From assembly GCA_913050005.1 (NCBI GenBank), contig CAJXBI010000003.1:7719-71718 (forward strand): a DNA stretch of 64,000 bases. The letters are read 5' to 3'. The notes beneath the pieces were generated by a model, which saw only the letters and a list, made by a program, of their open reading frames with translations, was not told where the DNA came from and did no database searches. Of the stretch, positions 27,225 through 37,827 are shown one piece after another. How positions within the stretch are numbered: position 1 is the stretch's first letter; the number at the start of each line of letters is the position of its first letter. Source of the DNA: an uncultured Bacteroidota bacterium. Its GTDB lineage: Bacteria; Bacteroidota; Bacteroidia; NS11-12g; UBA9320. The position numbers were made by a program, and so were the translations under genes.

Positions 27225-28256
27225 TTACTTAATAAGATCAGCATATTTAATTTTAAACTTTATTACTTTTGGTCTGATTATCATATTACAGTAGCCATTA
27301 GTTGATGAGTTATTATTAAAGTAATTTTGATGATAATCTTCTGCTTTACTGTAGTTATATATAGATTCTACTGTGGTGACTATGGGTTCGTCCCATAGAT
27401 TACTAGAATCAATCCTATTAAGTATATTATTAGCAATTTCTTTTTGTTGGGCACTGTGATAATAGATAACTGAACGGTATTGGTCTCCAACATCGTTTCC
27501 TTGTCTGTTTAGTGTGGTAGGATTATGGACATGAAAGAAAATATCAATAAGTGTTTCAGTTGATATAATTTTTGGATCATAAATTAGCTGAGCGACTTCA
27601 ACTGAACCAGTATTGCCCTGACAAACCATTTTATATGTAGGATTTTTTATTTTACCACCTGCATAACCACTTTCAACATGGGAAACACCCTTAAGTTTTT
27701 GAAAAAGAACTTCAACGCACCAGAAGCAACCTGCCCCAAATGTTATGGTATCTAATTCTGAAACTTCTTTTAAAGTAATTATTTTTGGAATGGATTTAGC
27801 CTTTGGAACGAATTTCATAGAAATACTATTGACACAGTGACGGGTATTTTTTGTTGTAAAATTCTCTCCAATAAATACGTGTCCAAGATGTCCTGAACAA
27901 TTACTGCAAACAATTTCAGTTCTTCGACCGTCAGAGTCAAGGATTCGATTTACAGCTCCGGTTATTTCATCATCAAAACTCGGCCAGCCACAATTGCTGT
28001 TGAATTTGGATGATGATTGATAAAGTTTTTGATTGCATTGTCTGCATATGTATGTTCCATCCTCATAGTGTTTATTATATTCACCTGTGTTAGGGTATTC
28101 AGTACCTTTTCGAATAATAACTCTTTTTTCAGCTTCAGTTAGTTTATTGTATTCTGTTGTGTTGGGTTTTTCTTGATTTATCATATTGTCAGATCCAATT
28201 TGGGCATTACAAGAAGTCACTAATAAAAGAAAAATTAAATAATAAGCATACTTCAT
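27225..28256 (-). CDS. msrAB: Secreted bifunctional methionine sulfoxide reductase MsrB-MsrA
   Basis: Signal/lipobox (LLVTSCNAQ). MsrB module (CxxC pairs, GHLGHVF...RHCVNS) followed by MsrA module (GAGCFWCVE). Confidence 0.85.
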   Translation of the reverse strand: MKYAYYLIFLLLVTSCNAQIGSDNMINQEKPNTTEYNKLTEAEKRVIIRKGTEYPNTGEYNKHYEDGTYICRQCNQKLYQSSSKFNSNCGWPSFDDEITGAVNRILDSDGRRTEIVCSNCSGHLGHVFIGENFTTKNTRHCVNSISMKFVPKAKSIPKIITLKEVSELDTITFGAGCFWCVEVLFQKLKGVSHVESGYAGGKIKNPTYKMVCQGNTGSVEVAQLIYDPKIISTETLIDIFFHVHNPTTLNRQGNDVGDQYRSVIYYHSAQQKEIANNILNRIDSSNLWDEPIVTTVESIYNYSKAEDYHQNYFNNNSSTNGYCNMIIRPKVIKFKIKYADLIK

Positions 28257-29406: not shown

Positions 29407-30408
29407 TTATCGGTACATGACTTTTTCGATAGCTTCTATTACACCCTTAGCATTAGGTAACCAAGTTTCAACCAGGCTAGATGCATATGGAAGTGGTGTA
29501 TCGAGTGTAGTTACACGCTTGATTGGTGCGTCAAGATGATCGAACACCATTTGGCTCATCATGTAGCTTATCTCAGAAGATATAGATGCTAAAGGCCATG
29601 CTTCTTCGAGCACTACGCATCGATTGGTCTTTTTAATACTCTCTGCAATTGTTTGGTAGTCGATTGGTCTCACAGATTGCAAATCAATAAGTTCGACATC
29701 AATTCCTTTTTCTGTTAATATTCTTACAGATTCTTCAGCAACTCTCATCATCTTTCCAAAAGAAACAAGGGTCACATCACTGCCAGTTTTTTGAATGTTT
29801 GCTTGTCCAAGAGGAATATAATATTCTTCCTCAGGAACGTCATGCTTGAGTCCGTACATCTGCTCACTTTCCATGAAAATTACTGGATCTGGATCAATAA
29901 TAGCAGATTTTAGAAGGCCTTTTGCATTATATGCGTTAGACAATACGGCAACTTTTAGACCAGGACAATTAGCATACCAGTTCTCAAACGCCTGAGAATG
30001 TTGAGCTCCCAGTTGTCCAGCACTTCCGGTAGGTCCTCGAAATACCATAGGGCATGTAAATTGACCGCCACTCATACTATTCATTTTAGCGGCAGCATTG
30101 ATAACTTGATCAATGGCAACTAGACTAAAGTTAAATGTCATAAATTCTACAATAGGCTTTAGCCCATTGGTAGCTGCTCCAGTTGCTATTCCAGCAAATC
30201 CTAACTCAGCTATAGGAGTATCAATCACTCTTTTCTCCCCAAATTCGTCAAGCATTCCCTGACTTACTTTGTATGCCCCATTATACTCAGCAACTTCCTC
30301 ACCCATGAGAAGAATAGAATCATCTTTTCGCATCTCCTCATTCATTGCTTCACGAAGTGCTTCACGTATTTGCAGTTGTCTTGACATTTTAATTTTTATT
30401 GAGTGCAA
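29407..30408 (-). CDS. 2-oxo acid (pyruvate/acetoin) dehydrogenase E1 component beta subunit
   Basis: Transketolase-like pyrimidine-binding and C-terminal domains (RVIDTPIAELGFAGIATGAATNGLKPIVEFMTFNF). The likely true start is the internal Met (MSRQLQI) at about 30387. Confidence 0.85.
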   Translation of the reverse strand: MHSIKIKMSRQLQIREALREAMNEEMRKDDSILLMGEEVAEYNGAYKVSQGMLDEFGEKRVIDTPIAELGFAGIATGAATNGLKPIVEFMTFNFSLVAIDQVINAAAKMNSMSGGQFTCPMVFRGPTGSAGQLGAQHSQAFENWYANCPGLKVAVLSNAYNAKGLLKSAIIDPDPVIFMESEQMYGLKHDVPEEEYYIPLGQANIQKTGSDVTLVSFGKMMRVAEESVRILTEKGIDVELIDLQSVRPIDYQTIAESIKKTNRCVVLEEAWPLASISSEISYMMSQMVFDHLDAPIKRVTTLDTPLPYASSLVETWLPNAKGVIEAIEKVMYR

Positions 30409-30541
30409 AAATAAGATTATTAATAAAGTAAAGTAACACTATTAAACGTGTTTTTTTAGAGTAATATATTCAAGAAAAAGATAAGAATTATGTCTTATTA
30501 GGCTCAGAAGTATTGATTGATTTTCTTGATGATAGTTGATT

Positions 30542-30907
30542 TTACTTACTGCAACATCCCTTTTTAGTTGTGCCACATTTTTTGACGGGTTCTTTTGGTT
30601 GACAACATTTCATGAGTTGGGCTTGACTATCAATATTAGCGTTAACTTTATTAGTTGCGTATCCAATATTGCTAATCATAGAATGGATATCACTCAGGGA
30701 TACTTTTTTCTCGTTATATCTAACTGTAAGAATCTTAGTTTCTTTGTTCCAATCTGCATGAGAAATTCCGGGGATATCTAATGTTTTTTCAATTTTTTCT
30801 TTGCAGATTTCACAATTGGCTTTTACTTCAATACGAGAAGTTGTATTTTCTGCAAAAAGAACGGTCGATACAAGTATTAATGCAAATAGAAGAATAGGAT
30901 GTTTCAT
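30542..30907 (-). CDS. Secreted heavy-metal-associated (HMA) domain protein with Cys-rich C-terminal tail
   Basis: Signal peptide. HMA-like metal-binding motif (NCEICKEKIEKTL; CxxC). C-terminal tail CCQPKEPVKKCGTTKKGCCSK. Confidence 0.6.
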   Translation of the reverse strand: MKHPILLFALILVSTVLFAENTTSRIEVKANCEICKEKIEKTLDIPGISHADWNKETKILTVRYNEKKVSLSDIHSMISNIGYATNKVNANIDSQAQLMKCCQPKEPVKKCGTTKKGCCSK

Positions 30908-30925
30908 GGTGTAAATATATGTAAT

Positions 30926-32035
30926 TTAAAATGGGGATGAATATTTTTCGTTGGTTAATAGGCTTTCATCTGTTAATGTTTTTAGGAAGGAAATTAATGC
31001 CTTTTTGTGCTCGGGGCTTAAATAAACGGAATCTTTTAATGCGTGTAAGTTAGGAGAGTCAGAAAGATCTACAGCACTTGATGCGTTCATATCACTAAGA
31101 TAAAATTGTACTACTTCCTCAAGCGTTTTAAATCTTCCGTCATGCATGTACGGTGCTGTTTTCTCAATATTTCTAAGCGATGTTGTTTTGAATTTATAGT
31201 TGTCATTAGGATTTCCAGTAACATCTCCCAAGCCCTTATCTCCATTGTCTGATAGTCCGTTTGTTAAAAATTCTCGACGCATGAATAAACTATTCCCATG
31301 ACAATGGAAGCAATCTGCACCAAAATTTTGAGGATTATTAGGGTCTACCTCATCTTTGAGTGGTATAGATTCTGAATTAAATATTACTTGACCCACTTTT
31401 TCTTCATCAGTAAATGATTCTAATCCTAGCATCACACGATCAAACTTTGAGTTTGAGGATACAATAGATAGCATAAATTGTTCTAATGCTTTTCCAATTA
31501 TCTTCTCGTCAAATGTGGATTCTAAAAATGCTTTTTGAAGATGTTCTTTGTAAAGCGGTGAACGATTTAATTTCATGATTACATGGTCAATGGTCTCGTT
31601 CATCTCAGTTTCATCAATTATTGGCTGGATAGCCTGATGCCTTAGTATATCTGCACTCCCATCCCAAAAGAATCCATCAATATGCCACATTAAATTGAAA
31701 ATAGCCATTGAATTGCGTTTTCCAACGGTACCTTTAACCCCGACACTAAATTGATTATTATTGTCTGTAAATGCATTTGCTTGATTGTGGCATGAATTAC
31801 AGCTTTGTGAGCTATCTGAACTTAAGATGGGGTCATAAAAAAGCATTCGGCCCAATTGAACTCCTTCTTCAGTTAGAGGATTGTCGCTGGGTATTCTTGG
31901 TGGAGGTAAGAGTGATGTATTGTAACTGAATGAATATGGTGTTATTAGAAAAGGATTTTGTGGAATTTCGTTGATTACATCCTTACATGATAGGAGAGTG
32001 ATAAATAAAAATGATATGATGAACAATTTCTTCAT
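30926..32035 (-). CDS. Di-heme cytochrome c peroxidase family protein (MauG/MbnH-like)
   Basis: Two heme c sites, CNSCHN and CFHCHG. Lipoprotein-type signal (..LLSCK). 369 aa. Confidence 0.85.
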   Translation of the reverse strand: MKKLFIISFLFITLLSCKDVINEIPQNPFLITPYSFSYNTSLLPPPRIPSDNPLTEEGVQLGRMLFYDPILSSDSSQSCNSCHNQANAFTDNNNQFSVGVKGTVGKRNSMAIFNLMWHIDGFFWDGSADILRHQAIQPIIDETEMNETIDHVIMKLNRSPLYKEHLQKAFLESTFDEKIIGKALEQFMLSIVSSNSKFDRVMLGLESFTDEEKVGQVIFNSESIPLKDEVDPNNPQNFGADCFHCHGNSLFMRREFLTNGLSDNGDKGLGDVTGNPNDNYKFKTTSLRNIEKTAPYMHDGRFKTLEEVVQFYLSDMNASSAVDLSDSPNLHALKDSVYLSPEHKKALISFLKTLTDESLLTNEKYSSPF

Positions 32036-32041
32036 TTAGTT

Positions 32042-32788
32042 TTACAGGCTTTCTATAGAAGATACAGAAAATACATCTTTCATATTATTAATTAATTTTA
32101 GTGTGACAGGATCTTCCACATTATGTGTGCTAAGACCATCAATTTCTATGGTATATACTTCAGGGCTCTGAAACACTTCTTTAATGTTATAGTTTAAAAT
32201 AGCATGGATTGCATCATCTTCTTTTGAAAAATTGTAAGGCAATTCAAAATCAACTTTATTCTGTGTGCCGGCTAAATGGAAAATAAAACTTTCATTATTA
32301 TGTATGGTTTTCCCTTCGATAGCTGTGAAAATATAGCCACCCTGCCAGCTCCAATGCAGCGAGTTATTGATAGGTGATAGAGGATGGTCTAAGGTGTATT
32401 GATTTGGATTACCGTGATTTATAATGGAGTCCAAACCGATAGAAAATCCAATTCCTTTGTAGGTTCCCTTAGGGATATTTATTAGTTTGAAATCAGAGTT
32501 AGAATATTTCATGTCAATGTAAAGGTATTGCTTGTCTAGTGCTATTCTAAACTCATTTTCATCAATCAGATAAAAGTTAGATAATAAATAGGCGAATCGA
32601 CTGAATTTGACAGGTTCATCACTAGGTAATGTATATTCTTGATTAAGTTCAAAATCTGAAGTATCAAACAAGTGATTGATAATAATATCCATTGTTGAAA
32701 CCTCATTTTTTATAGGGGGATCAGGCTTGCAACCCATGACTGATATTAAAAACCAAATTCCAATGATTATGAAGATAATTTTTTTCAT
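32042..32788 (-). CDS. Lipoprotein, candidate MbnP-family copper-binding protein
   Basis: Lipobox (VMGCKPD). About 250 aa. Conserved His/Trp cluster (HWSWQGGYIF, FIFHLAG). Placed between a TonB-dependent receptor and a di-heme peroxidase, as in MbnT/MbnP/MbnH loci. The family assignment is inferred from context. Confidence 0.4.
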   Translation of the reverse strand: MKKIIFIIIGIWFLISVMGCKPDPPIKNEVSTMDIIINHLFDTSDFELNQEYTLPSDEPVKFSRFAYLLSNFYLIDENEFRIALDKQYLYIDMKYSNSDFKLINIPKGTYKGIGFSIGLDSIINHGNPNQYTLDHPLSPINNSLHWSWQGGYIFTAIEGKTIHNNESFIFHLAGTQNKVDFELPYNFSKEDDAIHAILNYNIKEVFQSPEVYTIEIDGLSTHNVEDPVTLKLINNMKDVFSVSSIESL

Positions 32789-32797
32789 ATTTCTACA

Positions 32798-33490
32798 TTA
32801 TAAAAGCATAAAAAGTGCCATAGATAACATTAATACATTTTCAATAATTGTAACGTAACTCATAGGAAGGTTAAATACTGTTCCTAAACAAGCACATTGA
32901 ATCTTTGATTTTTGTATAACAGATTTTGACACACCTATCAATCCTACGAACATAACGATAGCAGTTGTTAAATTTGTTATGTCACTGTCATAAAAGAAAA
33001 CATATGCGAGACCTAAACCTAATTCAATAAATGGATAGATATATCCATAAAATCCAAATCTAGAGGATATGATATCATAAGATTGATACGCTTTTGCAAA
33101 AGCAGGGATATCCAGTAACTTGAAGAATGAAAATACGAGAAAGAATCCAGCCATGAAATTCGCCATCCAAGTTTCCAATAAGAAAATACCCGAACTTAGC
33201 TCAATGCTTAAAGTGACAATAGATAAGTAAAAAAGAATAAGGATGAGGGGTTTATATTGACTAAAAAAAAAGCTTTTTTTTGTTGGTGTTAGACTATAAT
33301 CACCAATTTCAGTTAGTAGGCTTTGAATTTCACTTTTGGAGGGTATATCATTTCCTTCAAGTATGGTTGACCCACTATCTTTTTGAATAGTAATTTTATC
33401 TAGTAAAGTATTCGTGTAAAGTTTTTTTTCAATTTTGCTCACACAACTCATGCAAGAAATACCTGAAATTATAATTTCTTTTTTATTCAT
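32798..33490 (-). CDS. HMA-domain protein fused to a 4-TM membrane domain (possibly MauE/DoxX-like)
   Basis: N-terminal GISCMSCVSKIEKKL (HMA fold with CxxC). About 4 hydrophobic helices. Conserved CACLG near the C-terminus. Start overlaps the stop of the upstream TBDR by 4 nt. Confidence 0.55.
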   Translation of the reverse strand: MNKKEIIISGISCMSCVSKIEKKLYTNTLLDKITIQKDSGSTILEGNDIPSKSEIQSLLTEIGDYSLTPTKKSFFFSQYKPLILILFYLSIVTLSIELSSGIFLLETWMANFMAGFFLVFSFFKLLDIPAFAKAYQSYDIISSRFGFYGYIYPFIELGLGLAYVFFYDSDITNLTTAIVMFVGLIGVSKSVIQKSKIQCACLGTVFNLPMSYVTIIENVLMLSMALFMLL

Positions 33491-35754
33491 TTTGATTTAA
33501 TTCTCCATCGAAAACCGCCATAAATTATTCTTCCAAAAATAGGTCCCCAAACTAATCCAGCATCAAAATTTTCTGAAAATGGTTGAATAGCATCTTGAAT
33601 GGGGTTTTGCTGTTTAAAATTCAATATATTTTCTGCACCAATATATAACTCAAATTCTTTTTTAAAAGTTTTACTAATTTGAGCGTTTAATAAAAAAAAG
33701 TTAGGTGAATATTTGTCTTTAATTTGCTTTAAATTATTTGTGAAATAAATGGTGTCTTTACCTCCAGCAATTCGCTGAGGCCCATACCAAGTTAGTGTAG
33801 TATTAAATCTCCAATCAGTTCGAGTATTCTGGGTGATATTAATAAAAGCTCGGTCTTTAGAAATAAATGGTTTTTGTTTAGTTATGAGGGATAAAGTGTT
33901 CGATTCACTCTGATATTTGGTCTTTACATCAAACATTCGGTATGCCAAGCGAATATCAGTCCTACGAGCAGGCTTTAGGTCTAGTTGGGTCTGAAAACTA
34001 TTTGCAATTGTTCCATTTGTTACATTATAAAAATAGGCTTTCCCTGCATTTTCTCTGTCCACAACTACTTCATTTTTAAACGTAGTATTGAAGAAATCAA
34101 CACCAATTATTGCAGGCATGTACGCCATTTTAAATTGATGCTCAAAACTTATCCCTGAATTTAAGGCTAATTCTTGTTCCAAACCATAGGCAAATTGAGA
34201 ATCACGCATTATAAATTCCAAAGTTCTACCTGAAGCAAATAGCATTTGGTTTTGAGCGAGCGGATTACTTGTTCTTCTTCCAAGACCAGTTGATATTCTT
34301 ATCGATGTTTTATCTTTATTAAAACGATATTTCCCATGAAATCTTGGGGTAAAAGAAAGACCATAAATTGTATTGAAGTCTGATCTAATCCCACCTACTA
34401 AGCTGAATGTTTCTTTTGGTTTATATGTGTATTCAAAAAATAGTCCTGAGACTGCCTCTGTCCTTTCAAATTGAAAGCCCTCAAAGGTTTCTTTAGTTTC
34501 ATCAATTAATAATGAAATACCTGTTTGAAATTGATGAAAGCTATTCCCAATAATACTTTCATAGAGAAGGTTAACATACCCTTGATTTGTTTGTGCTAGA
34601 TATTCTTTTTGATTTTCGTTAGAGCCATAATTGCTGGACATTTCTGAGTGATTGAAATTATACTGAGAACCAAAACTACTGTACTCATTTTTTTTCGAGG
34701 GTTTCCCAAGCTTAGCAAAAAAATCGATAACTTCAGTATTAATGCCAATTTTATATGGATTTGAGTTTGAATTTGATTGTCCAGCTTTTTGAAGACTGTT
34801 GTGGTAGCTAGCATTTGCTGTCCCTTCAAAACCATTTTTGTTAAAGAATTGCCAACGATTCATAATCTTAAAATCTTCACTTATTGGCATATCCAAAAAC
34901 CCATCGTTGTTATTATCGAATTCTAATGATCTGTTTCCATATCGAATGAATAGTGAGGATGCAATGTTTTTTTTAATATCCTTTGTATACATAAAATCCG
35001 TTTCAAATCGTCCACCAGAACTAGCAAATTGGTCCAAAATGAATTTTTCAGATCCAAAGGGTTTTTTAAGCTCTATATTAATCTGACCAGCAATGCTCTC
35101 GTGGCCATTTACGACACTACCAGCACCCTTCGTTATTTGAATCCCATCTACCCATGCAGCGGGTATGTGAGATAAACCATAGTATGAATTAAGTGTTCTG
35201 ACGGATGGCATATACTCTCTACCAATTAGTGTGTAAAAACCATCAAGGCCAAGCATTTTAATCTGTTTTGTTCCTGTGACAGCATCACTGAAACTAACGT
35301 CGATAGCAGGGGCATTTTCAAAACTTTCGGATAGGTTGCAACAAGCTGCTTTCTGAAATTCTCGTTCCCCAAGTAGGATAGTTGTTCTTGGGCTTAATTT
35401 AGAAAGCCCATATGAAATGCGTTTTGCTATAACAACTGCCGTTTTTAAATCATTTTGTTCCTCTAATATAATTAGATAATTAGAGTCTATTTTATTGATG
35501 AGGATGGTGTCTGATTTATATGAAGAAAATGATGCAACTAGTCTATCATTATCTTTATTTTTAATTATAAATTGACCTTTGTTATTTGTGAAAACACCAG
35601 AAGAATTCCCACTCCAGTGAACAAAGGCTCCAACTAAAGGCACTTGTCCTCTTGATGAGTTGAAAATTACATTTCCTTTTATTTTTTGAACTTCTTGCTG
35701 AGCATATAAATTTATACCAATCAGCATAAAGAACATTATTATTATGTTTTTCAT
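33487..35754 (-). CDS. TonB-dependent receptor with N-terminal carboxypeptidase-regulatory-like domain
   Basis: Signal peptide. CarbopepD_reg-like region (IKGNVIFNSSRGQVPLVGAFVHW...NKGQFIIKN). Plug region, then a long beta-barrel. 755 aa. Confidence 0.8.
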   Translation of the reverse strand: MKNIIIMFFMLIGINLYAQQEVQKIKGNVIFNSSRGQVPLVGAFVHWSGNSSGVFTNNKGQFIIKNKDNDRLVASFSSYKSDTILINKIDSNYLIILEEQNDLKTAVVIAKRISYGLSKLSPRTTILLGEREFQKAACCNLSESFENAPAIDVSFSDAVTGTKQIKMLGLDGFYTLIGREYMPSVRTLNSYYGLSHIPAAWVDGIQITKGAGSVVNGHESIAGQINIELKKPFGSEKFILDQFASSGGRFETDFMYTKDIKKNIASSLFIRYGNRSLEFDNNNDGFLDMPISEDFKIMNRWQFFNKNGFEGTANASYHNSLQKAGQSNSNSNPYKIGINTEVIDFFAKLGKPSKKNEYSSFGSQYNFNHSEMSSNYGSNENQKEYLAQTNQGYVNLLYESIIGNSFHQFQTGISLLIDETKETFEGFQFERTEAVSGLFFEYTYKPKETFSLVGGIRSDFNTIYGLSFTPRFHGKYRFNKDKTSIRISTGLGRRTSNPLAQNQMLFASGRTLEFIMRDSQFAYGLEQELALNSGISFEHQFKMAYMPAIIGVDFFNTTFKNEVVVDRENAGKAYFYNVTNGTIANSFQTQLDLKPARRTDIRLAYRMFDVKTKYQSESNTLSLITKQKPFISKDRAFINITQNTRTDWRFNTTLTWYGPQRIAGGKDTIYFTNNLKQIKDKYSPNFFLLNAQISKTFKKEFELYIGAENILNFKQQNPIQDAIQPFSENFDAGLVWGPIFGRIIYGGFRWRIKSK

Positions 35755-35805
35755 GAATATTTTATTGGGTTATTGTTAGAATTAAAAGTTTTAAAAAACT
35801 ATCAA

Positions 35806-36171
35806 CTAACATAAAAAAACCTGAAAAATACTGGGGTGACTATTAATGTCAATATAATTTGAACAAACTATTCTATACCTATTGCACAGATTAGTTAAAA
35901 CATGTAGTTTGACTTTTAATATAATGGGTAAACTGATTGGGATGTTTAATGTTTTTTGGGGGGTGAAATCAATTTGATTTGGGGGCAAAACAATTAAAAC
36001 AAAATCATTACAATTATCTTGATCGATAGTTTCATGACAGGATGTGGGATTATAATCTTGTGAACAACACGTTTCAAAATCGGTAACACAACAAGCATCA
36101 ATGACCATACTGAATCCAATGCTAGGGAATAACAGTATTAGAGAAAATAATATAGCAGTAACTTGCTTCAA
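35806..36171 (-). CDS. Small secreted Cys-rich hypothetical protein
   Basis: Signal peptide followed by DACCVTDFETCCSQDYNPTSCHETIDQDNC. The C-terminal half is low-complexity, so coding status is uncertain. Confidence 0.3.
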   Translation of the reverse strand: MKQVTAILFSLILLFPSIGFSMVIDACCVTDFETCCSQDYNPTSCHETIDQDNCNDFVLIVLPPNQIDFTPQKTLNIPISLPIILKVKLHVLTNLCNRYRIVCSNYIDINSHPSIFQVFLC

Positions 36172-36225
36172 ATTGATACAAAATTAAGGCTTTAATGATA
36201 AATCTGAGGATCTAATCTAACGTGC

Positions 36226-37263
36226 TCAAAATTTATAGGAAAATCCAATACCGAGAAGTCGTTTAAATTGTGTGCGAGGGCCAGATCCAACAATTGTATT
36301 CCCATCATATAGTGGAATAGCCACGTCATTATCGTGAATTAAATTGGTATAGAAACTAAAACCAATATATTCAGTGAGTTTCATGTTTATCATAGTCTCC
36401 CAGTTGACATCAATATTTTTTCGGTTAGCCGAATTTACATCCGTGAAGTTGTTAAAAAGATTTAGAGTAGAGGTGAGGTTAATTTTTTTGGTAATATCTT
36501 TTTTAAATTGAATGTTAATTAAAGCACCAAACTCAACTCTGTATTGATCATTATAAAATTGAACTCCATTTTCATCCATTGTAGCGGGAATGTAGATGTT
36601 TTGTGCAGCTATAGAGTCATCATTTACAAAGGTGAATTTCCCGGTTGCAGGTGATAAATAAAGAGAAAAATAGTTAGTGAAACTGTAATTTACCCCGATA
36701 GAGGTAATGAGATAGCCAGGGGCTAAAAATTTAGAAATTTCAGTTCTGTCTTTATCTTCAATTGTTGGATCAGAAAAATCAAAACCTGGTGCAAATTGTG
36801 ATTTGAAGTTTAACAGACTTGAATAACTTAATTTGTCAGTTATGCCGTAATTCACTTTTGTTAAAAAGTCAATTTTGTCTTCATTTTTTCGAAGTGTTTC
36901 TTCATCATTTTTGATTAATCCGTATGCTAAATCCAAGTTATTTCTCCATTCGATTTTATCTTTTTTATAGTTTCTGTAAATATTCCCAATAGCAGTTACA
37001 GAATTAGCTGAAACACCTCCAGCAGCCCAATTAGTCAAACCTAATGAGTTAAAGTTAAGTGCACTAAATCCTCCTTTTTCCCAGTATTCAGGTGGTGTAA
37101 GTCTTGCAATTTCTTGTTTGATGGAATTCACTCTGTTTTGTGCATTGACTAGTGAGGATCTGGCCTTTTCTAATTCTTGTTTTTTTAATTCAAATGCATC
37201 ATTTTGACCAAATGCGTTAAAAATGAGTCCGAAAAGTAATGAACATGCAAATAGATTTTTCAT
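36226..37263 (-). CDS. Outer membrane beta-barrel protein (DUF3078-like) with N-terminal coiled-coil
   Basis: Signal peptide, coiled-coil segment (ELKKQELEKARSSLVNAQNRVNSIKQEIARL), WEKGGF...NW.AGGVSAN motif pair, C-terminal Phe. Confidence 0.45.
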   Translation of the reverse strand: MKNLFACSLLFGLIFNAFGQNDAFELKKQELEKARSSLVNAQNRVNSIKQEIARLTPPEYWEKGGFSALNFNSLGLTNWAAGGVSANSVTAIGNIYRNYKKDKIEWRNNLDLAYGLIKNDEETLRKNEDKIDFLTKVNYGITDKLSYSSLLNFKSQFAPGFDFSDPTIEDKDRTEISKFLAPGYLITSIGVNYSFTNYFSLYLSPATGKFTFVNDDSIAAQNIYIPATMDENGVQFYNDQYRVEFGALINIQFKKDITKKINLTSTLNLFNNFTDVNSANRKNIDVNWETMINMKLTEYIGFSFYTNLIHDNDVAIPLYDGNTIVGSGPRTQFKRLLGIGFSYKF

Positions 37264-37332
37264 GTTTTAAGTTAAATCAAATGGTTTATTTTAGTGTAAA
37301 GAGTTTAAATGAATACTGGTTGTATTGATAAT

Positions 37333-37827
37333 TTACTCAAATGATAAAAGTGTGTGATTTTTATCAATTTTATCTTGATTTTTAATTGCTATTTTTTTGA
37401 TTTTACCATCTTGAGGTGATTTAATTGCATTCTCCATTTTCATGGCTTCCAAAACGATTAATTCCTGCCCTTCTGTAACATCTTCACCTTCTTTCACCAT
37501 AATGTCCAATACAAGTCCTGGCATGGGTGCTTTAAGGTCTTTCAGCTTTTTCTTGTTGTTATCCATTCCCATTTTTTTGAGAAGGTCAGCAAGTTTATTT
37601 TGAAGTTGAGTTGAGATTACTCTACCATTAATTTTTAAAGTTAGTTTGCCTGAATGCGTGGTTTTATTTAGAACCTCAATATTGAAGGATTGTCTATTGT
37701 AAATTAGATGGTAATTATTGTCACCAGTTTCAAGAAGATCATATACAACTTCAACTTGATTTATAAGTGTGGCTTCATTTGTCTTTTCAATATTGTAAGA
37801 GCTATTGTCTATGATAATCTTAGCCAT
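37333..37827 (-). CDS. Biotin/lipoyl attachment domain protein (BCCP-like)
   Basis: C-terminal biotinyl domain with the EAMKMEN biotinylation motif. 164 aa. Confidence 0.65.
   Translation of the reverse strand: MAKIIIDNSSYNIEKTNEATLINQVEVVYDLLETGDNNYHLIYNRQSFNIEVLNKTTHSGKLTLKINGRVISTQLQNKLADLLKKMGMDNNKKKLKDLKAPMPGLVLDIMVKEGEDVTEGQELIVLEAMKMENAIKSPQDGKIKKIAIKNQDKIDKNHTLLSFE

Follow-up and report, generated by a model that had tools for sequence, protein, structure and literature searches.

The DNA between positions 30542 and 36171 is a six-gene chromosomal operon from an uncultured aquatic Bacteroidia lineage, and we consider that it acquires copper by a TonB-dependent, MbnPH-type route (probability about 60%). 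By sequence comparison, its core pair is distantly related to MbnP/MbnH, a known copper-binding pair. We infer function throughout, including copper specificity, kynurenine formation, and the direction of transport, each of them. The window is the whole 64-kb stretch of DNA that was analysed, and its features are listed below in the order of transcription.

36179-36186, minus strand: candidate Bacteroidota-type -7 promoter box TAATTTTG, read from sequence with low confidence
35806-36171, minus strand: leader small protein, 121 aa, TTG start, divergent member of the DUF8199/HYC_CC_PP family
33487-35754, minus strand: TonB-dependent outer-membrane receptor, 755 aa, Pfam CarbopepD_reg_2 and Plug
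32798-33490, minus strand: inner-membrane HMA-MauE fusion, 230 aa, Pfam MauE (E 8.9e-12) and HMA (22.3 bits)
32042-32788, minus strand: MbnP-like lipoprotein, 248 aa, lipobox VMGC, Cys20
30926-32035, minus strand: MbnH-like di-heme lipoprotein, 369 aa, lipobox LLSC, Cys17, Pfam CCP_MauG (E 8.5e-50)
30542-30907, minus strand: secreted HMA protein with a Cys-rich tail (HMA-tail protein), 121 aa, signal peptide, Pfam HMA (E 4e-9)

The original prediction described five to six tightly spaced minus-strand genes, and all six ORFs are co-directional, nearly abutting, and located where it placed them. The gaps along transcription are 51 nt, a 4-nt overlap (ATGA) in which the HMA-MauE start codon overlaps the receptor stop codon, 9 nt, 6 nt, and 18 nt. 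This spacing is compatible with a single operon. Many homologues were found for each of the six genes and their order was repeated in independent assemblies; thus, the ORF set is not due to chance. The GC content of the locus, 0.30-0.36, matches its flanks, and relatives share the flanking synteny; the locus is, thus, not an island. The genes co-occur in related genomes, a point on which the original prediction depended: the complete cassette was found in loci L004-L015 and L100, all from related Bacteroidia MAGs. In relatives it occupies the same chromosomal site, with flanking synteny seen in L006 and L099. The cassette in L099 is otherwise identical and lacks the HMA-MauE gene, so this gene is not essential to the core.

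Profile searches and a structural model showed a predicted MbnP fold and a WxW motif in the lipoprotein, in agreement with its proposed MbnP-like identity. It matched Pfam MbnP at 110.6 bits, hhalign against canonical MbnPs gave a probability of 98.4%, and the model matched the MbnP fold only. The assignment is qualified by an NCBIfam MbnP score of 45.7, below the curated cutoff of 140, and direct sequence similarity to 7L6G was marginal (E 0.89). The WxW motif, W146-S-W148 (32345-32353), is invariant in 60 homologues. H135, H171, and H222 are also invariant, and H125 and H145 nearly so. All six Cys that are invariant in canonical MbnPs, including the four-Cys motif, are absent from the protein. 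At the position of the canonical invariant Met, M266 of the M. parvus MbnP, the protein has Val224, and a search for an invariant Met across the MbnP-like subfamily found none. The only characterised MbnP binds copper via a kynurenine site whose Kyn174, part of the WxW motif, is required for copper binding. By analogy with Methylosinus MbnPH, either W146 or W148 of the WxW motif would be oxidised to kynurenine and the copper site completed by conserved His. This site probably has His/His/Kyn ligands in place of His/Met/Kyn, as the canonical Met has not been kept. MopE/CorA of Methylococcus and Methylomicrobium has a kynurenine and two-His copper site, is encoded beside a di-heme peroxidase, is surface-associated, and is copper-repressed. 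The MbnP-like protein may resemble it in a His/His/Kyn site and in surface exposure but differs in fold. Acidic residues after the lipid-anchor Cys resemble the Bacteroidota surface-export signal and, therefore, the protein might act at the cell surface instead of in the periplasm.

The di-heme enzyme was shown by sequence to be of the MauG/MbnH type, as had been suggested, with a predicted His/Tyr heme, rather than a canonical bCCP. Both claimed heme motifs are present, CNSCH at residues 79-83 (31787-31801) and CFHCH at residues 242-246 (31298-31312), and the inter-heme Trp lies within FFWDG. The best family model was TIGR04039 MbnH at 219 bits, which is under the NCBIfam cutoff of 363, compared to 139.5 bits for MauG. 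The best PDB match was 6e1c, an MbnH orthologue (152.6 bits), and phmmer gave 128-164 bits against canonical MbnHs, 106-122 against bCCPs, and 90-114 against MauGs. Tyr312 (31100-31102) falls in the ligand column that holds Tyr in all MbnH-like, MbnH, and MauG sequences and Met in canonical bCCPs. In the tree, the enzyme was placed outside the canonical bCCP clade, which has 100% support, and the deep nodes linking the Bacteroidota clade to canonical MbnH were weak (19-36%). With H2O2, the enzyme would reach a bis-Fe(IV) state and oxidise Trp in the WxW motif of the MbnP-like protein.

In public annotations, this enzyme appears only as a "cytochrome c peroxidase" and the rest of the operon as "hypothetical," as would suit a housekeeping periplasmic peroxidase that happens to lie beside an unrelated lipoprotein and metal-chaperone genes. 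That adjacency without pathway meaning is largely refuted and retains hardly any probability, as many assemblies with 44-56% protein identity keep the gene order, start codons overlap or adjoin stop codons, the ligand column has Tyr in place of Met, and further Bacteroidota loci also pair an MbnP-like gene with a di-heme gene.

Compared to the MbnP/MbnH of M. trichosporium OB3b (7L6G, 6e1c; the "metallo-mystery pair," TIGR04052/TIGR04039), the window proteins are 13-17% identical and both are lipoproteins. The cassette also differs in its extra HMA-MauE, HMA-tail, and DUF8199 genes and in having no methanobactin genes; neither these nor biosynthesis genes were found near the locus. The HMA proteins were said to fall outside the described MbnPH pair, and this agrees with the literature searched, in which three extra Cys-rich parts are not described with the pair.

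The order of receptor, lipoprotein, and di-heme enzyme was taken as an MbnT/MbnP/MbnH arrangement. The order stands and MbnPH pairs adjoining TBDTs are documented, but the receptor has no specific MbnT likeness: neither M. parvus MbnT nor the Ideonella TBDT next to MbnPH showed phmmer similarity to it, so that it shares only the superfamily with MbnT. Besides a plug and a barrel, it has a CarboxypepD_reg-like N-domain; it partially matches TBDT equivalogs, and its plug matches the colicin I receptor. The vicinal plug Cys pair C138-C139 (35338-35343) was kept in 10/10 cassette orthologues, as were H407, H473, H539, and several Met. Copper would cross the outer membrane via this receptor, possibly using the Cys pair.

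The HMA-tail protein carries the claimed CxxC motif (C32, C35; 30803-30814) and a Cys-rich C-terminal tail, CCQPK...C...CC. C32, C35, C101, C102, C111, and C118 were kept in 10/10 orthologues and C119 in 9/10; the receptor plug and HMA-MauE, like this tail, have conserved Cys motifs. Together with the MbnP-like protein, the HMA-tail protein would hold copper in the periplasm. HMA CxxC sites and poly-Cys tails also bind Zn, Cd, Hg, and Ag, and the weak matches of this protein include MerP and MerTP as well as CopZ. The system could, therefore, import another thiophilic metal or, since canonical MbnT receptors import copper-loaded methanobactin, an organic, chalkophore-like metal chelate rather than ionic copper. 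Any such chelate would originate outside the cell, from other microbes, since no biosynthesis genes lie nearby. We consider this quite unlikely: the copper site of the sole characterised MbnP argues against it, direct metal binding would suit the invariant Cys pair of the plug, and the contexts of the family and of canonical pairs are consistently copper-related, with PCu(A)C and SCO proteins and multicopper oxidases.

The original prediction gave the membrane protein four TM helices. This count was not supported, since Pfam and an AF2 model (pLDDT 80) indicate an HMA-MauE fusion with an HMA domain and five predicted helices (75-99, 105-126, 146-165, 170-192, and 210-229). The N-terminal HMA domain has the claimed CxxC (C13, C16; 33443-33454), the TM4-TM5 loop has a CxC (C199, C201; 32888-32896), TM2 has MxxxM (M109, M113), and TM5 has M221/M224/M228. 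There is no signal peptide, and K+R are confined to the linker and loops 2 and 4 (on average 2.0 in loop 2 and 2.05 in loop 4 vs 0.03 in loop 1 and 0.02 in loop 3). Therefore, the CxC and HMA CxxC motifs are predicted to be cytoplasmic. The protein resembles MauE of the methylamine-utilisation cluster in its Pfam PF07291 match, which is above cutoff, and in a CxC...P.S motif, the CxC being common to it and P. denitrificans MauE. It differs in the added N-terminal HMA domain, one more TM helix, and Met-rich helices, and the mauD, mauA, and mauB genes of the mau cluster are absent here.

In the copper acquisition reading, HMA-MauE would pass Cu(I) via its Met-lined helices (MxxxM) to the cytoplasmic CxC and HMA CxxC. 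This step may resemble MerP-MerT-NmerA or CopC-CopD as a thiol relay, in which a periplasmic HMA protein or chaperone is followed by a small inner-membrane Cys-pair protein and a cytoplasmic HMA domain. The HMA proteins of the operon match MerP and MerTP weakly. The analogy is functional only since the membrane domain here is of the MauE/DoxX type, in contrast to MerT and CopD. The protein could instead be a redox conduit, like CcdA/DsbD or as proposed for MauE with MauD, with its HMA domain as a copper sensor. Reducing equivalents from the CxC would then keep the HMA tail, the leader protein, and the plug CC reduced, or reduce Cu(II) to Cu(I). We find this doubtful, as no MauD or thioredoxin-like gene is present in the cassette, both Cys motifs are predicted to be cytoplasmic, and the invariant TM2 and TM5 Met were gained in the fused subfamily, are not seen in true MauE, and are what a Cu(I) path would call for.

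The neighbours of more distant HMA-MauE relatives have the look of copper stress: a multicopper oxidase in 11/65, an AraC regulator with an HMA-like N-terminus in 29/64, and also DUF3347 and HMBD proteins. HMA chaperones are typical of efflux systems, and MbnH can reportedly also detoxify H2O2, according to a 2023 paper on the enzyme. The same parts could, thus, serve copper detoxification or periplasmic buffering, with Cu(I) sequestered or exported and the di-heme enzyme also removing peroxide. Classical cop operons, however, combine a multicopper oxidase with the importer CopCD and, therefore, an oxidase context is no argument against import. The first structural gene encodes a TonB-dependent receptor, an energy-coupled importer, and neither the cassette nor the rest of the 64-kb window encodes a P-type ATPase, an RND pump, or a multicopper oxidase. 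CruR-headed proteobacterial MbnPH/TBDT operons are, moreover, repressed by copper. Detoxification is, thus, unlikely compared to acquisition.

The claim that no regulator lies nearby held for classical regulators, but the leader ORF sits where the copper-sensing uORF CruR (DUF2946) heads proteobacterial MbnP-MbnH-TBDT operons. By sequence, the leader is a genuine member of a conserved small-protein family, DUF8199/HYC_CC_PP. Its N-terminal segment is hydrophobic, CC/C motifs are present, and the C-terminus (...FQVFLC) is conserved. It had no direct Pfam or NCBIfam match and no DUF2946 match; it aligns with the same-position ORFs of L004, L006, and L007, which have PF26622 DUF8199 and, at 22-43 bits, NF047658 HYC_CC_PP matches. 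The family's PP motif is absent from the window's ORF, and gene callers were divided between 121-aa and 100-aa versions. Among the fetched loci, jackhmmer recovered 29 family members. CruR operons (Bordetella bp2923-bfrG-bp2921; Ideonella DUF2946-MbnP-MbnH-TBDT) likewise have a small exported or membrane Cys-containing ORF first and a TonB-dependent receptor in the operon, and some include MbnPH-like genes. The window differs in its leader family (DUF8199/HYC_CC_PP, not DUF2946), in the lack of the RAPP motif, and in an intergenic gap of 51 nt vs about 160 nt. The weakest step of the proposed mechanism is that the leader might sense copper in cis, in the manner of CruR. A sigma-70 scan found sites no more numerous than in shuffled sequence. 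The Bacteroidetes promoter -7 consensus is TAnnTTTG, and the candidate box TAATTTTG ends 7 nt upstream of the leader TTG start.

Six genes were found on the minus strand, exactly at the coordinates that the original prediction had assigned to them, as seen in the list below.

Genes of the cassette in transcription order (positions in the window)
35806-36171, minus strand: leader ORF, 121 aa
33487-35754, minus strand: TonB-dependent receptor, 755 aa, with a CarboxypepD_reg-like N-terminal domain and plug (Pfam/NCBIfam)
32798-33490, minus strand: HMA-MauE fusion, 230 aa, with an HMA domain and PF07291
32042-32788, minus strand: MbnP-like lipoprotein, 248 aa, with a Pfam MbnP match
30926-32035, minus strand: MbnH-like di-heme enzyme, 369 aa, CCP_MauG
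30542-30907, minus strand: HMA-tail protein, 121 aa, with a signal peptide, then an HMA domain and a Cys-rich tail

From the leader onward, the first two genes are separated by 51 nt, the next two overlap by 4 nt, and the remaining gaps measure only 9, 6, and 18 nt; with junctions this small, a single operon is the natural reading. Overall, we read the cassette as a locus for MbnPH-type copper acquisition, with a probability of about 60%. This central claim of the original prediction was supported, for a core pair that is distant, with both members below the NCBIfam cutoffs, and a receptor that has no specific similarity to MbnT. The exact proteins are publicly annotated under generic names ("hypothetical," "cytochrome c peroxidase," and "heavy-metal-associated domain-containing protein").

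The 248-aa lipoprotein scored 110.6 bits on the Pfam family MbnP (PF20243; cutoff 27), with E 1.2e-31 over profile positions 3-178 of 189. On the NCBIfam model TIGR04052 ("MbnP family copper-binding protein"), it scored 45.7 bits, below the cutoff of 140, and the match was confined to profile positions 93-163. Canonical MbnPs, which like the canonical MbnHs were taken from plasmid records of Methylocystis, Paracoccus, Trichormus, and Ideonella, scored 275-321 bits on this model. Matches to 7L6G, the only solved MbnP, were marginal at the level of sequence, both in a direct search (E 0.89, the WxW region alone) and in a profile search against PDB sequences (E 0.36), and a 67-aa fragment of 7L6G used as a homology query gave no matches. 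A profile-profile comparison of the Bacteroidia family with the canonical MbnPs gave a probability of 98.4% (E 8.5e-15, 205 columns). An AlphaFold model built on 60 homologues had a pLDDT of 88.7; in a Foldseek search, its sole matches below E 1e-3 were the six 7L6G chains, at E of about 1e-8. The Pfam score above cutoff, the profile-profile result, and the MbnP fold of the model bear out the predicted MbnP-like identity, and homology to MbnP is supported.

In canonical MbnP, Trp174 is converted to kynurenine, which a review describes as needed for copper binding. The WxW motif of the window protein, W146-S-W148, is invariant in the 60 homologues and aligns with W171-N-W173 (WNW) of canonical MbnP, and either of its two Trp may be the counterpart of Kyn174. 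Canonical MbnPs have two invariant His residues, H154 and H204 (M. parvus numbering), whose counterparts in the alignment are the conserved H125 and H171 of the window protein. They also share a single invariant internal Met, M266 of the GCMS motif, which we infer to be the Met copper ligand in M. parvus MbnP; in the window protein, V224 occupies its position. No invariant Met was found in the Bacteroidia MbnP-like subfamily, and an invariant His, H222, lies two residues upstream of V224. Six Cys residues are invariant in canonical MbnPs, the four-Cys motif of 7L6G among them, and all are absent from the window protein, whose sole Cys is the lipobox Cys20. From the loss of the Met and Cys residues and the nearby H222, the copper site is predicted to be His/His/kynurenine and MopE/CorA-like, on an MbnP fold. 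Such a site would link the chemistry of MbnP with that of MopE/CorA.

In all 60 MbnP-like proteins, the residues after the lipobox Cys are acidic; on average, 2.5 of the first five are Asp or Glu. The surface-lipoprotein export signal of Bacteroidota is a similar acidic stretch after the lipidated Cys and, because of this resemblance, the MbnP-like protein may be located at the cell surface as a capture partner of the receptor.

The gene of the di-heme enzyme starts 6 nt after the MbnP-like gene, and this pairing is repeated in all related loci. The enzyme has heme motifs CNSCH (79-83) and CFHCH (242-246) and matches CCP_MauG (PF03150, E 8.5e-50). Its best-scoring NCBIfam family was TIGR04039 ("MbnH family di-heme enzyme"), with 219.1 bits over the full length (positions 1-336), below the cutoff of 362.85; the score for MauG was 139.5 bits, and canonical MbnHs score 441-559 bits on TIGR04039. 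The best PDB match was 6e1c (152.6 bits), followed by canonical bCCPs at 100-117 bits and MauG at 86-93 bits. Likewise, phmmer with the window enzyme gave 128-164 bits for canonical MbnHs, 106-122 for bCCPs, and 90-114 for MauGs. The structure 6e1c is a close orthologue of the Methylocystis parvus MbnH from the mbn operon (672.6 bits, 100% bootstrap). Its assignment as Burkholderia BthA was ruled out, since the tree and the direct search make it an MbnH orthologue.

In the alignment, the distal-ligand column holds a Tyr in the window enzyme (Y312) and a Met in four canonical bCCPs. The Tyr is also found in all the Bacteroidota MbnP-adjacent enzymes, five canonical MbnHs, 6e1c, and two MauGs, and in P. 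denitrificans MauG it is presumably the heme ligand Tyr294. By alignment, then, Tyr would replace Met as the distal ligand of the six-coordinate heme in the window enzyme. The inter-heme Trp (FFW-DG) is conserved. In a neighbor-joining tree, the window enzyme grouped with Bacteroidota enzymes encoded next to MbnP (94-100% support) and fell outside the clade of canonical bCCPs, itself supported at 100%; the node that makes the Bacteroidota clade the sister of canonical MbnH had weak support (19%). The best scores on TIGR04039 and 6e1c, the Tyr at position 312, and the placement outside the bCCP clade agree with the expectation of a MauG/MbnH-like peroxidase rather than a canonical bCCP. A distant MbnH-like branch, rather than an equivalog, is the description that fits the enzyme best.

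A separate observation concerns product names in plasmid records. In five comparison loci, the gene right after "MbnP family copper-binding protein" (L088:6618-7778, L089:6516-7685, L090:6610-7761, L091:5696-6880, and L092:5545-6816) bears the product name "methanobactin export MATE transporter MbnM." Each of the five genes encodes two CxxCH motifs, and the three that were scanned (L088, L089, and L090) scored 441-559 bits on TIGR04039. The name looks like a systematic product-name error.

In the proposed mechanism, the di-heme lipoprotein would oxidize a Trp of the WxW motif in the MbnP-like lipoprotein to kynurenine and thereby create a copper site. The receptor would import copper, the MbnP-like and HMA-tail proteins would hold it, and HMA-MauE would pass Cu(I) into the cytoplasm. 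Neither M. parvus MbnT nor the TBDT adjacent to MbnPH in Ideonella gave a phmmer hit to the window receptor at E <= 10, and only generic TBDT domains were found in it. The receptor has no N-terminal signalling extension and no FecIR genes. The main alternatives to the acquisition of copper are that the cassette carries out copper detoxification instead, or that its substrate is something other than copper. Cys/His motifs of the receptor, the HMA-tail protein, and the di-heme enzyme are kept in all orthologues. The receptor plug contains a vicinal pair, C138-C139 (window 35338-35343), invariant in 10/10 orthologues, which may be a metal-binding or redox site. A Cys-Cys pair in the plug is unusual for TonB-dependent receptors.

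Conservation of the cassette was examined in contexts retrieved via the lipoprotein and via the HMA-MauE protein. The lipoprotein had 95 close homologues, all with PF20243, and those with a taxon name were from Bacteroidia or Bacteroidetes MAGs. Its profile, searched against 1.84 billion cluster representatives, matched 172 at E <= 1e-30 and 5,359 at E <= 1e-3. The gene order DUF8199, receptor, HMA-MauE, MbnP-like, MbnH-like, HMA was kept in the related loci L004-L015 and L100, and the identities of cassette proteins among relatives went down to about 45-55%. Co-occurrence of the HMA-membrane and HMA-tail genes with MbnPH had been expected in relatives, and this common order confirms it. Another locus (L099:4155-9249) has the cassette at an unchanged chromosomal site without HMA-MauE, with a gap of 99 nt from the receptor to the MbnP-like gene. 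Therefore, the core of the cassette consists of the leader, receptor, MbnP-like, MbnH-like, and HMA genes, and HMA-MauE is frequent but dispensable. L099 is a natural deletion or absence variant that is useful for judging how essential HMA-MauE is. A further locus, L101, has two tandem MbnP-like genes. A second cluster lies just upstream of the cassette in three loci (L004:399-4294, L012:2117-6012, and L100:1-3561); it comprises a DUF8199 gene, an MbnP-like gene whose product has a C-terminal T9SS sorting domain, and a tandem of two genes for di-heme CCP_MauG enzymes. This cluster would encode a secreted or surface MbnP variant with two oxidases.

The 230-aa protein had been described as an HMA-domain protein with four TM helices. 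The HMA domain and the membrane location stood, whereas the generic 4-TM description gave way to an HMA-MauE fusion with five TM helices. It matched MauE (PF07291) with 45.9 bits (cutoff 27, E 8.9e-12), and its AlphaFold model (pLDDT 80) shows an HMA domain and then five TM helices. Invariant in the family are the CxxC of the HMA domain, a CxC between TM4 and TM5, the MxxxM of TM2 (M109 and M113), and M210, M221, and M224. Lys and Arg are restricted to the linker and loops 2 and 4, at about 2.0 per loop compared to 0.03 and 0.02 in loops 1 and 3, and no signal peptide was found. Because of this charge distribution and the absence of a signal peptide, the HMA domain and the CxC loop are both predicted to be cytoplasmic.

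By analogy with MerP-MerT-NmerA and CopC-CopD, we read HMA-MauE as a candidate Cu(I) permease with a thiol relay at its cytoplasmic end. CopC-CopD is also found beside a multicopper oxidase. A serious alternative is that HMA-MauE is a redox conduit, like the role proposed for MauE/MauD. The alignment shows a CxC...P.S common to the window protein and P. denitrificans MauE; however, the MauE of the Paracoccus mau cluster has neither the Met residues nor the HMA domain. Also, no MauD (thioredoxin-like) or MADH genes were found among the six cassette proteins and the immediate flanking genes.

At least 7,738 proteins belong to the HMA-MauE family at E <= 1e-3, and the set of species-representative genomes contains at least 485 of its loci. 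They are distributed over Flavobacterium, Riemerella, Chitinophagaceae, Saprospiraceae, and Cytophagales, and also Methylophilaceae and Planctomycetota. Outside the cassette lineage, MbnPH is not adjacent. The usual neighbors are an AraC-type regulator with an HMA-like N-terminus upstream (29/64) and a multicopper oxidase downstream (11/65), together with DUF3347 or HMBD proteins and, often, a DUF8199 gene. The AraC-HMA regulator, the multicopper oxidase, and the DUF3347/HMBD proteins tie the HMA-MauE family to copper in general. A ~186-aa AraC/HTH_18 regulator, with the HMA-like motif "IKNxVCxxC" at its N-terminus, precedes HMA-MauE in Flavobacterium, Riemerella, Chitinophagaceae, and others (loci L017-L086), and a multicopper oxidase, DUF3347, or HMBD protein often follows. 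This neighborhood is likely a copper-responsive regulon and was not found described in the searchable literature. In Methylophilaceae/Methylotenera loci of betaproteobacterial methylotrophs (L019-L026 and L034-L043), the HMA-MauE proteins are 41-46% identical to the window protein. Their neighborhood is conserved, with a radical-SAM gene (DUF3362) upstream, a Leu/Phe-tRNA protein transferase gene downstream, and no mau or MbnPH genes. The same arrangement was found in an uncultured beta proteobacterium (L016).

The leader ORF gave no direct profile match in NCBIfam or in the Pfam set searched, which did not contain PF26622. Both MAFFT and jackhmmer do join it to the ORFs that head the related cassettes. 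These positional orthologues carry PF26622 (DUF8199) and score 22.4-43 bits on NF047658 (HYC_CC_PP), for which the cutoff is 28. Proteins of the DUF8199/HYC_CC_PP type are hydrophobic in an N-terminal segment and at the C-terminus and carry HYC-type, CC, and PP motifs; in the cassette-linked subfamily, a C-terminal QVFLC is nearly invariant. The window ORF ends in ...SHPSIFQVFLC, with the PP degenerate (HPS).

CruR (DUF2946) of Proteobacteria is a small protein that heads copper-repressed operons with TonB receptors and, sometimes, MbnPH-like genes, and it senses copper during its own translation. An Ideonella plasmid has the order DUF2946-MbnP-MbnH-TBDT, for instance. The window leader ORF is unrelated to CruR and resembles it in position only, although the positional parallel is striking. 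[quoted passage not shown] The PP motif is missing from the window copy, and the intergenic gap is short. A Chondrinema litorale plasmid (L093:7415-12222, NZ_CP111054.1) carries two neighboring gene pairs, each coding for an MbnP family protein and a cytochrome c peroxidase. In front of each pair lies a ~127-aa ORF with an N-terminal hydrophobic segment, Cys motifs, and no Pfam match. The C-termini of these small ORFs, FHPPKSFC and FRPPIAS, recall the RAPP arrest motif of CruR.

A more far-reaching reading, which we consider unlikely as a whole, is that the cassette is a complete Bacteroidota-specific pathway for copper import from the outside to the cytoplasm, joining an HMA-MauE permease, a surface MbnP-like protein, and a sensing leader. 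In that case, HMA-MauE would represent a novel permease family for Cu(I) in the inner membrane. The kynurenine/His site of the MbnP-like protein at the surface would capture copper for the receptor, as surface lipoproteins serve other TonB receptors of Bacteroidota. The DUF8199/HYC_CC_PP leader would be a peptide that senses copper and regulates in cis, as the counterpart of CruR in Bacteroidota.

To our knowledge, it has not been worked out how Bacteroidota obtain copper, and the role of MbnPH outside methanotrophs is unclear. Abundant marine and freshwater Bacteroidota need copper for oxidases while hardly any free copper is available. The MbnP/MbnH pair, its wide spread beyond methanotrophs, and its association with TonB receptors were already known, and RefSeq labels the Bacteroidota homologues "MbnP family protein." The searchable literature contained no mention of DUF8199, HYC_CC_PP, or PF20243. 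It also yielded no description of this cassette from Bacteroidia, of an MbnPH pair linked to HMA-MauE and a poly-Cys HMA protein, of the DUF8199 leader, or of the lipidated MbnP variant without Met and Cys. The cassette combines, in one compact operon, a distant MbnPH pair with a receptor, a chaperone of the periplasm, and a candidate for the inner-membrane step and, thus, offers a testable end-to-end pathway. DUF8199/HYC_CC_PP genes recur beside the cassette and beside HMA-MauE genes in the Bacteroidota loci surveyed. A copper role is likely for two large uncharacterized families, the HMA-MauE fusions and the DUF8199/HYC_CC_PP small proteins.

The original prediction had placed no regulator near the cassette and, likewise, no classical regulator was found in the region. 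A scan of the locus for sigma-70 promoters and terminators found no more than chance, and an Rfam scan of window 30000-37500 found no element. A box shortly before the leader ORF, TAATTTTG, conforms to the -7 consensus of Bacteroidota, and we give it low weight as a promoter. Elsewhere in the 64-kb window, there was no second MbnP/MbnH cluster, AraC-HMA regulator, or multicopper oxidase. The sequences come from marine and estuarine metagenomes, Tara samples included.

The GC content of the cassette (0.30-0.36) does not differ from that of its flanks, which hold housekeeping genes. On the upstream side, these encode DUF3078 and a biotin/lipoyl-domain protein; the downstream ones encode pyruvate dehydrogenase E1-beta, a rhodanese-type protein, and an MsrB-MsrA fusion. 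The flanking order is partly common to relatives. Therefore, the locus is chromosomal and vertically inherited, and a mobile island was rejected on the same GC and synteny. The MsrB-MsrA fusion (SelR and PMSR; window 27225-28256, minus strand) lies 2.3 kb downstream of the cassette. It has a lipoprotein-type signal, LLLVTSC, and would be an exported methionine sulfoxide reductase.
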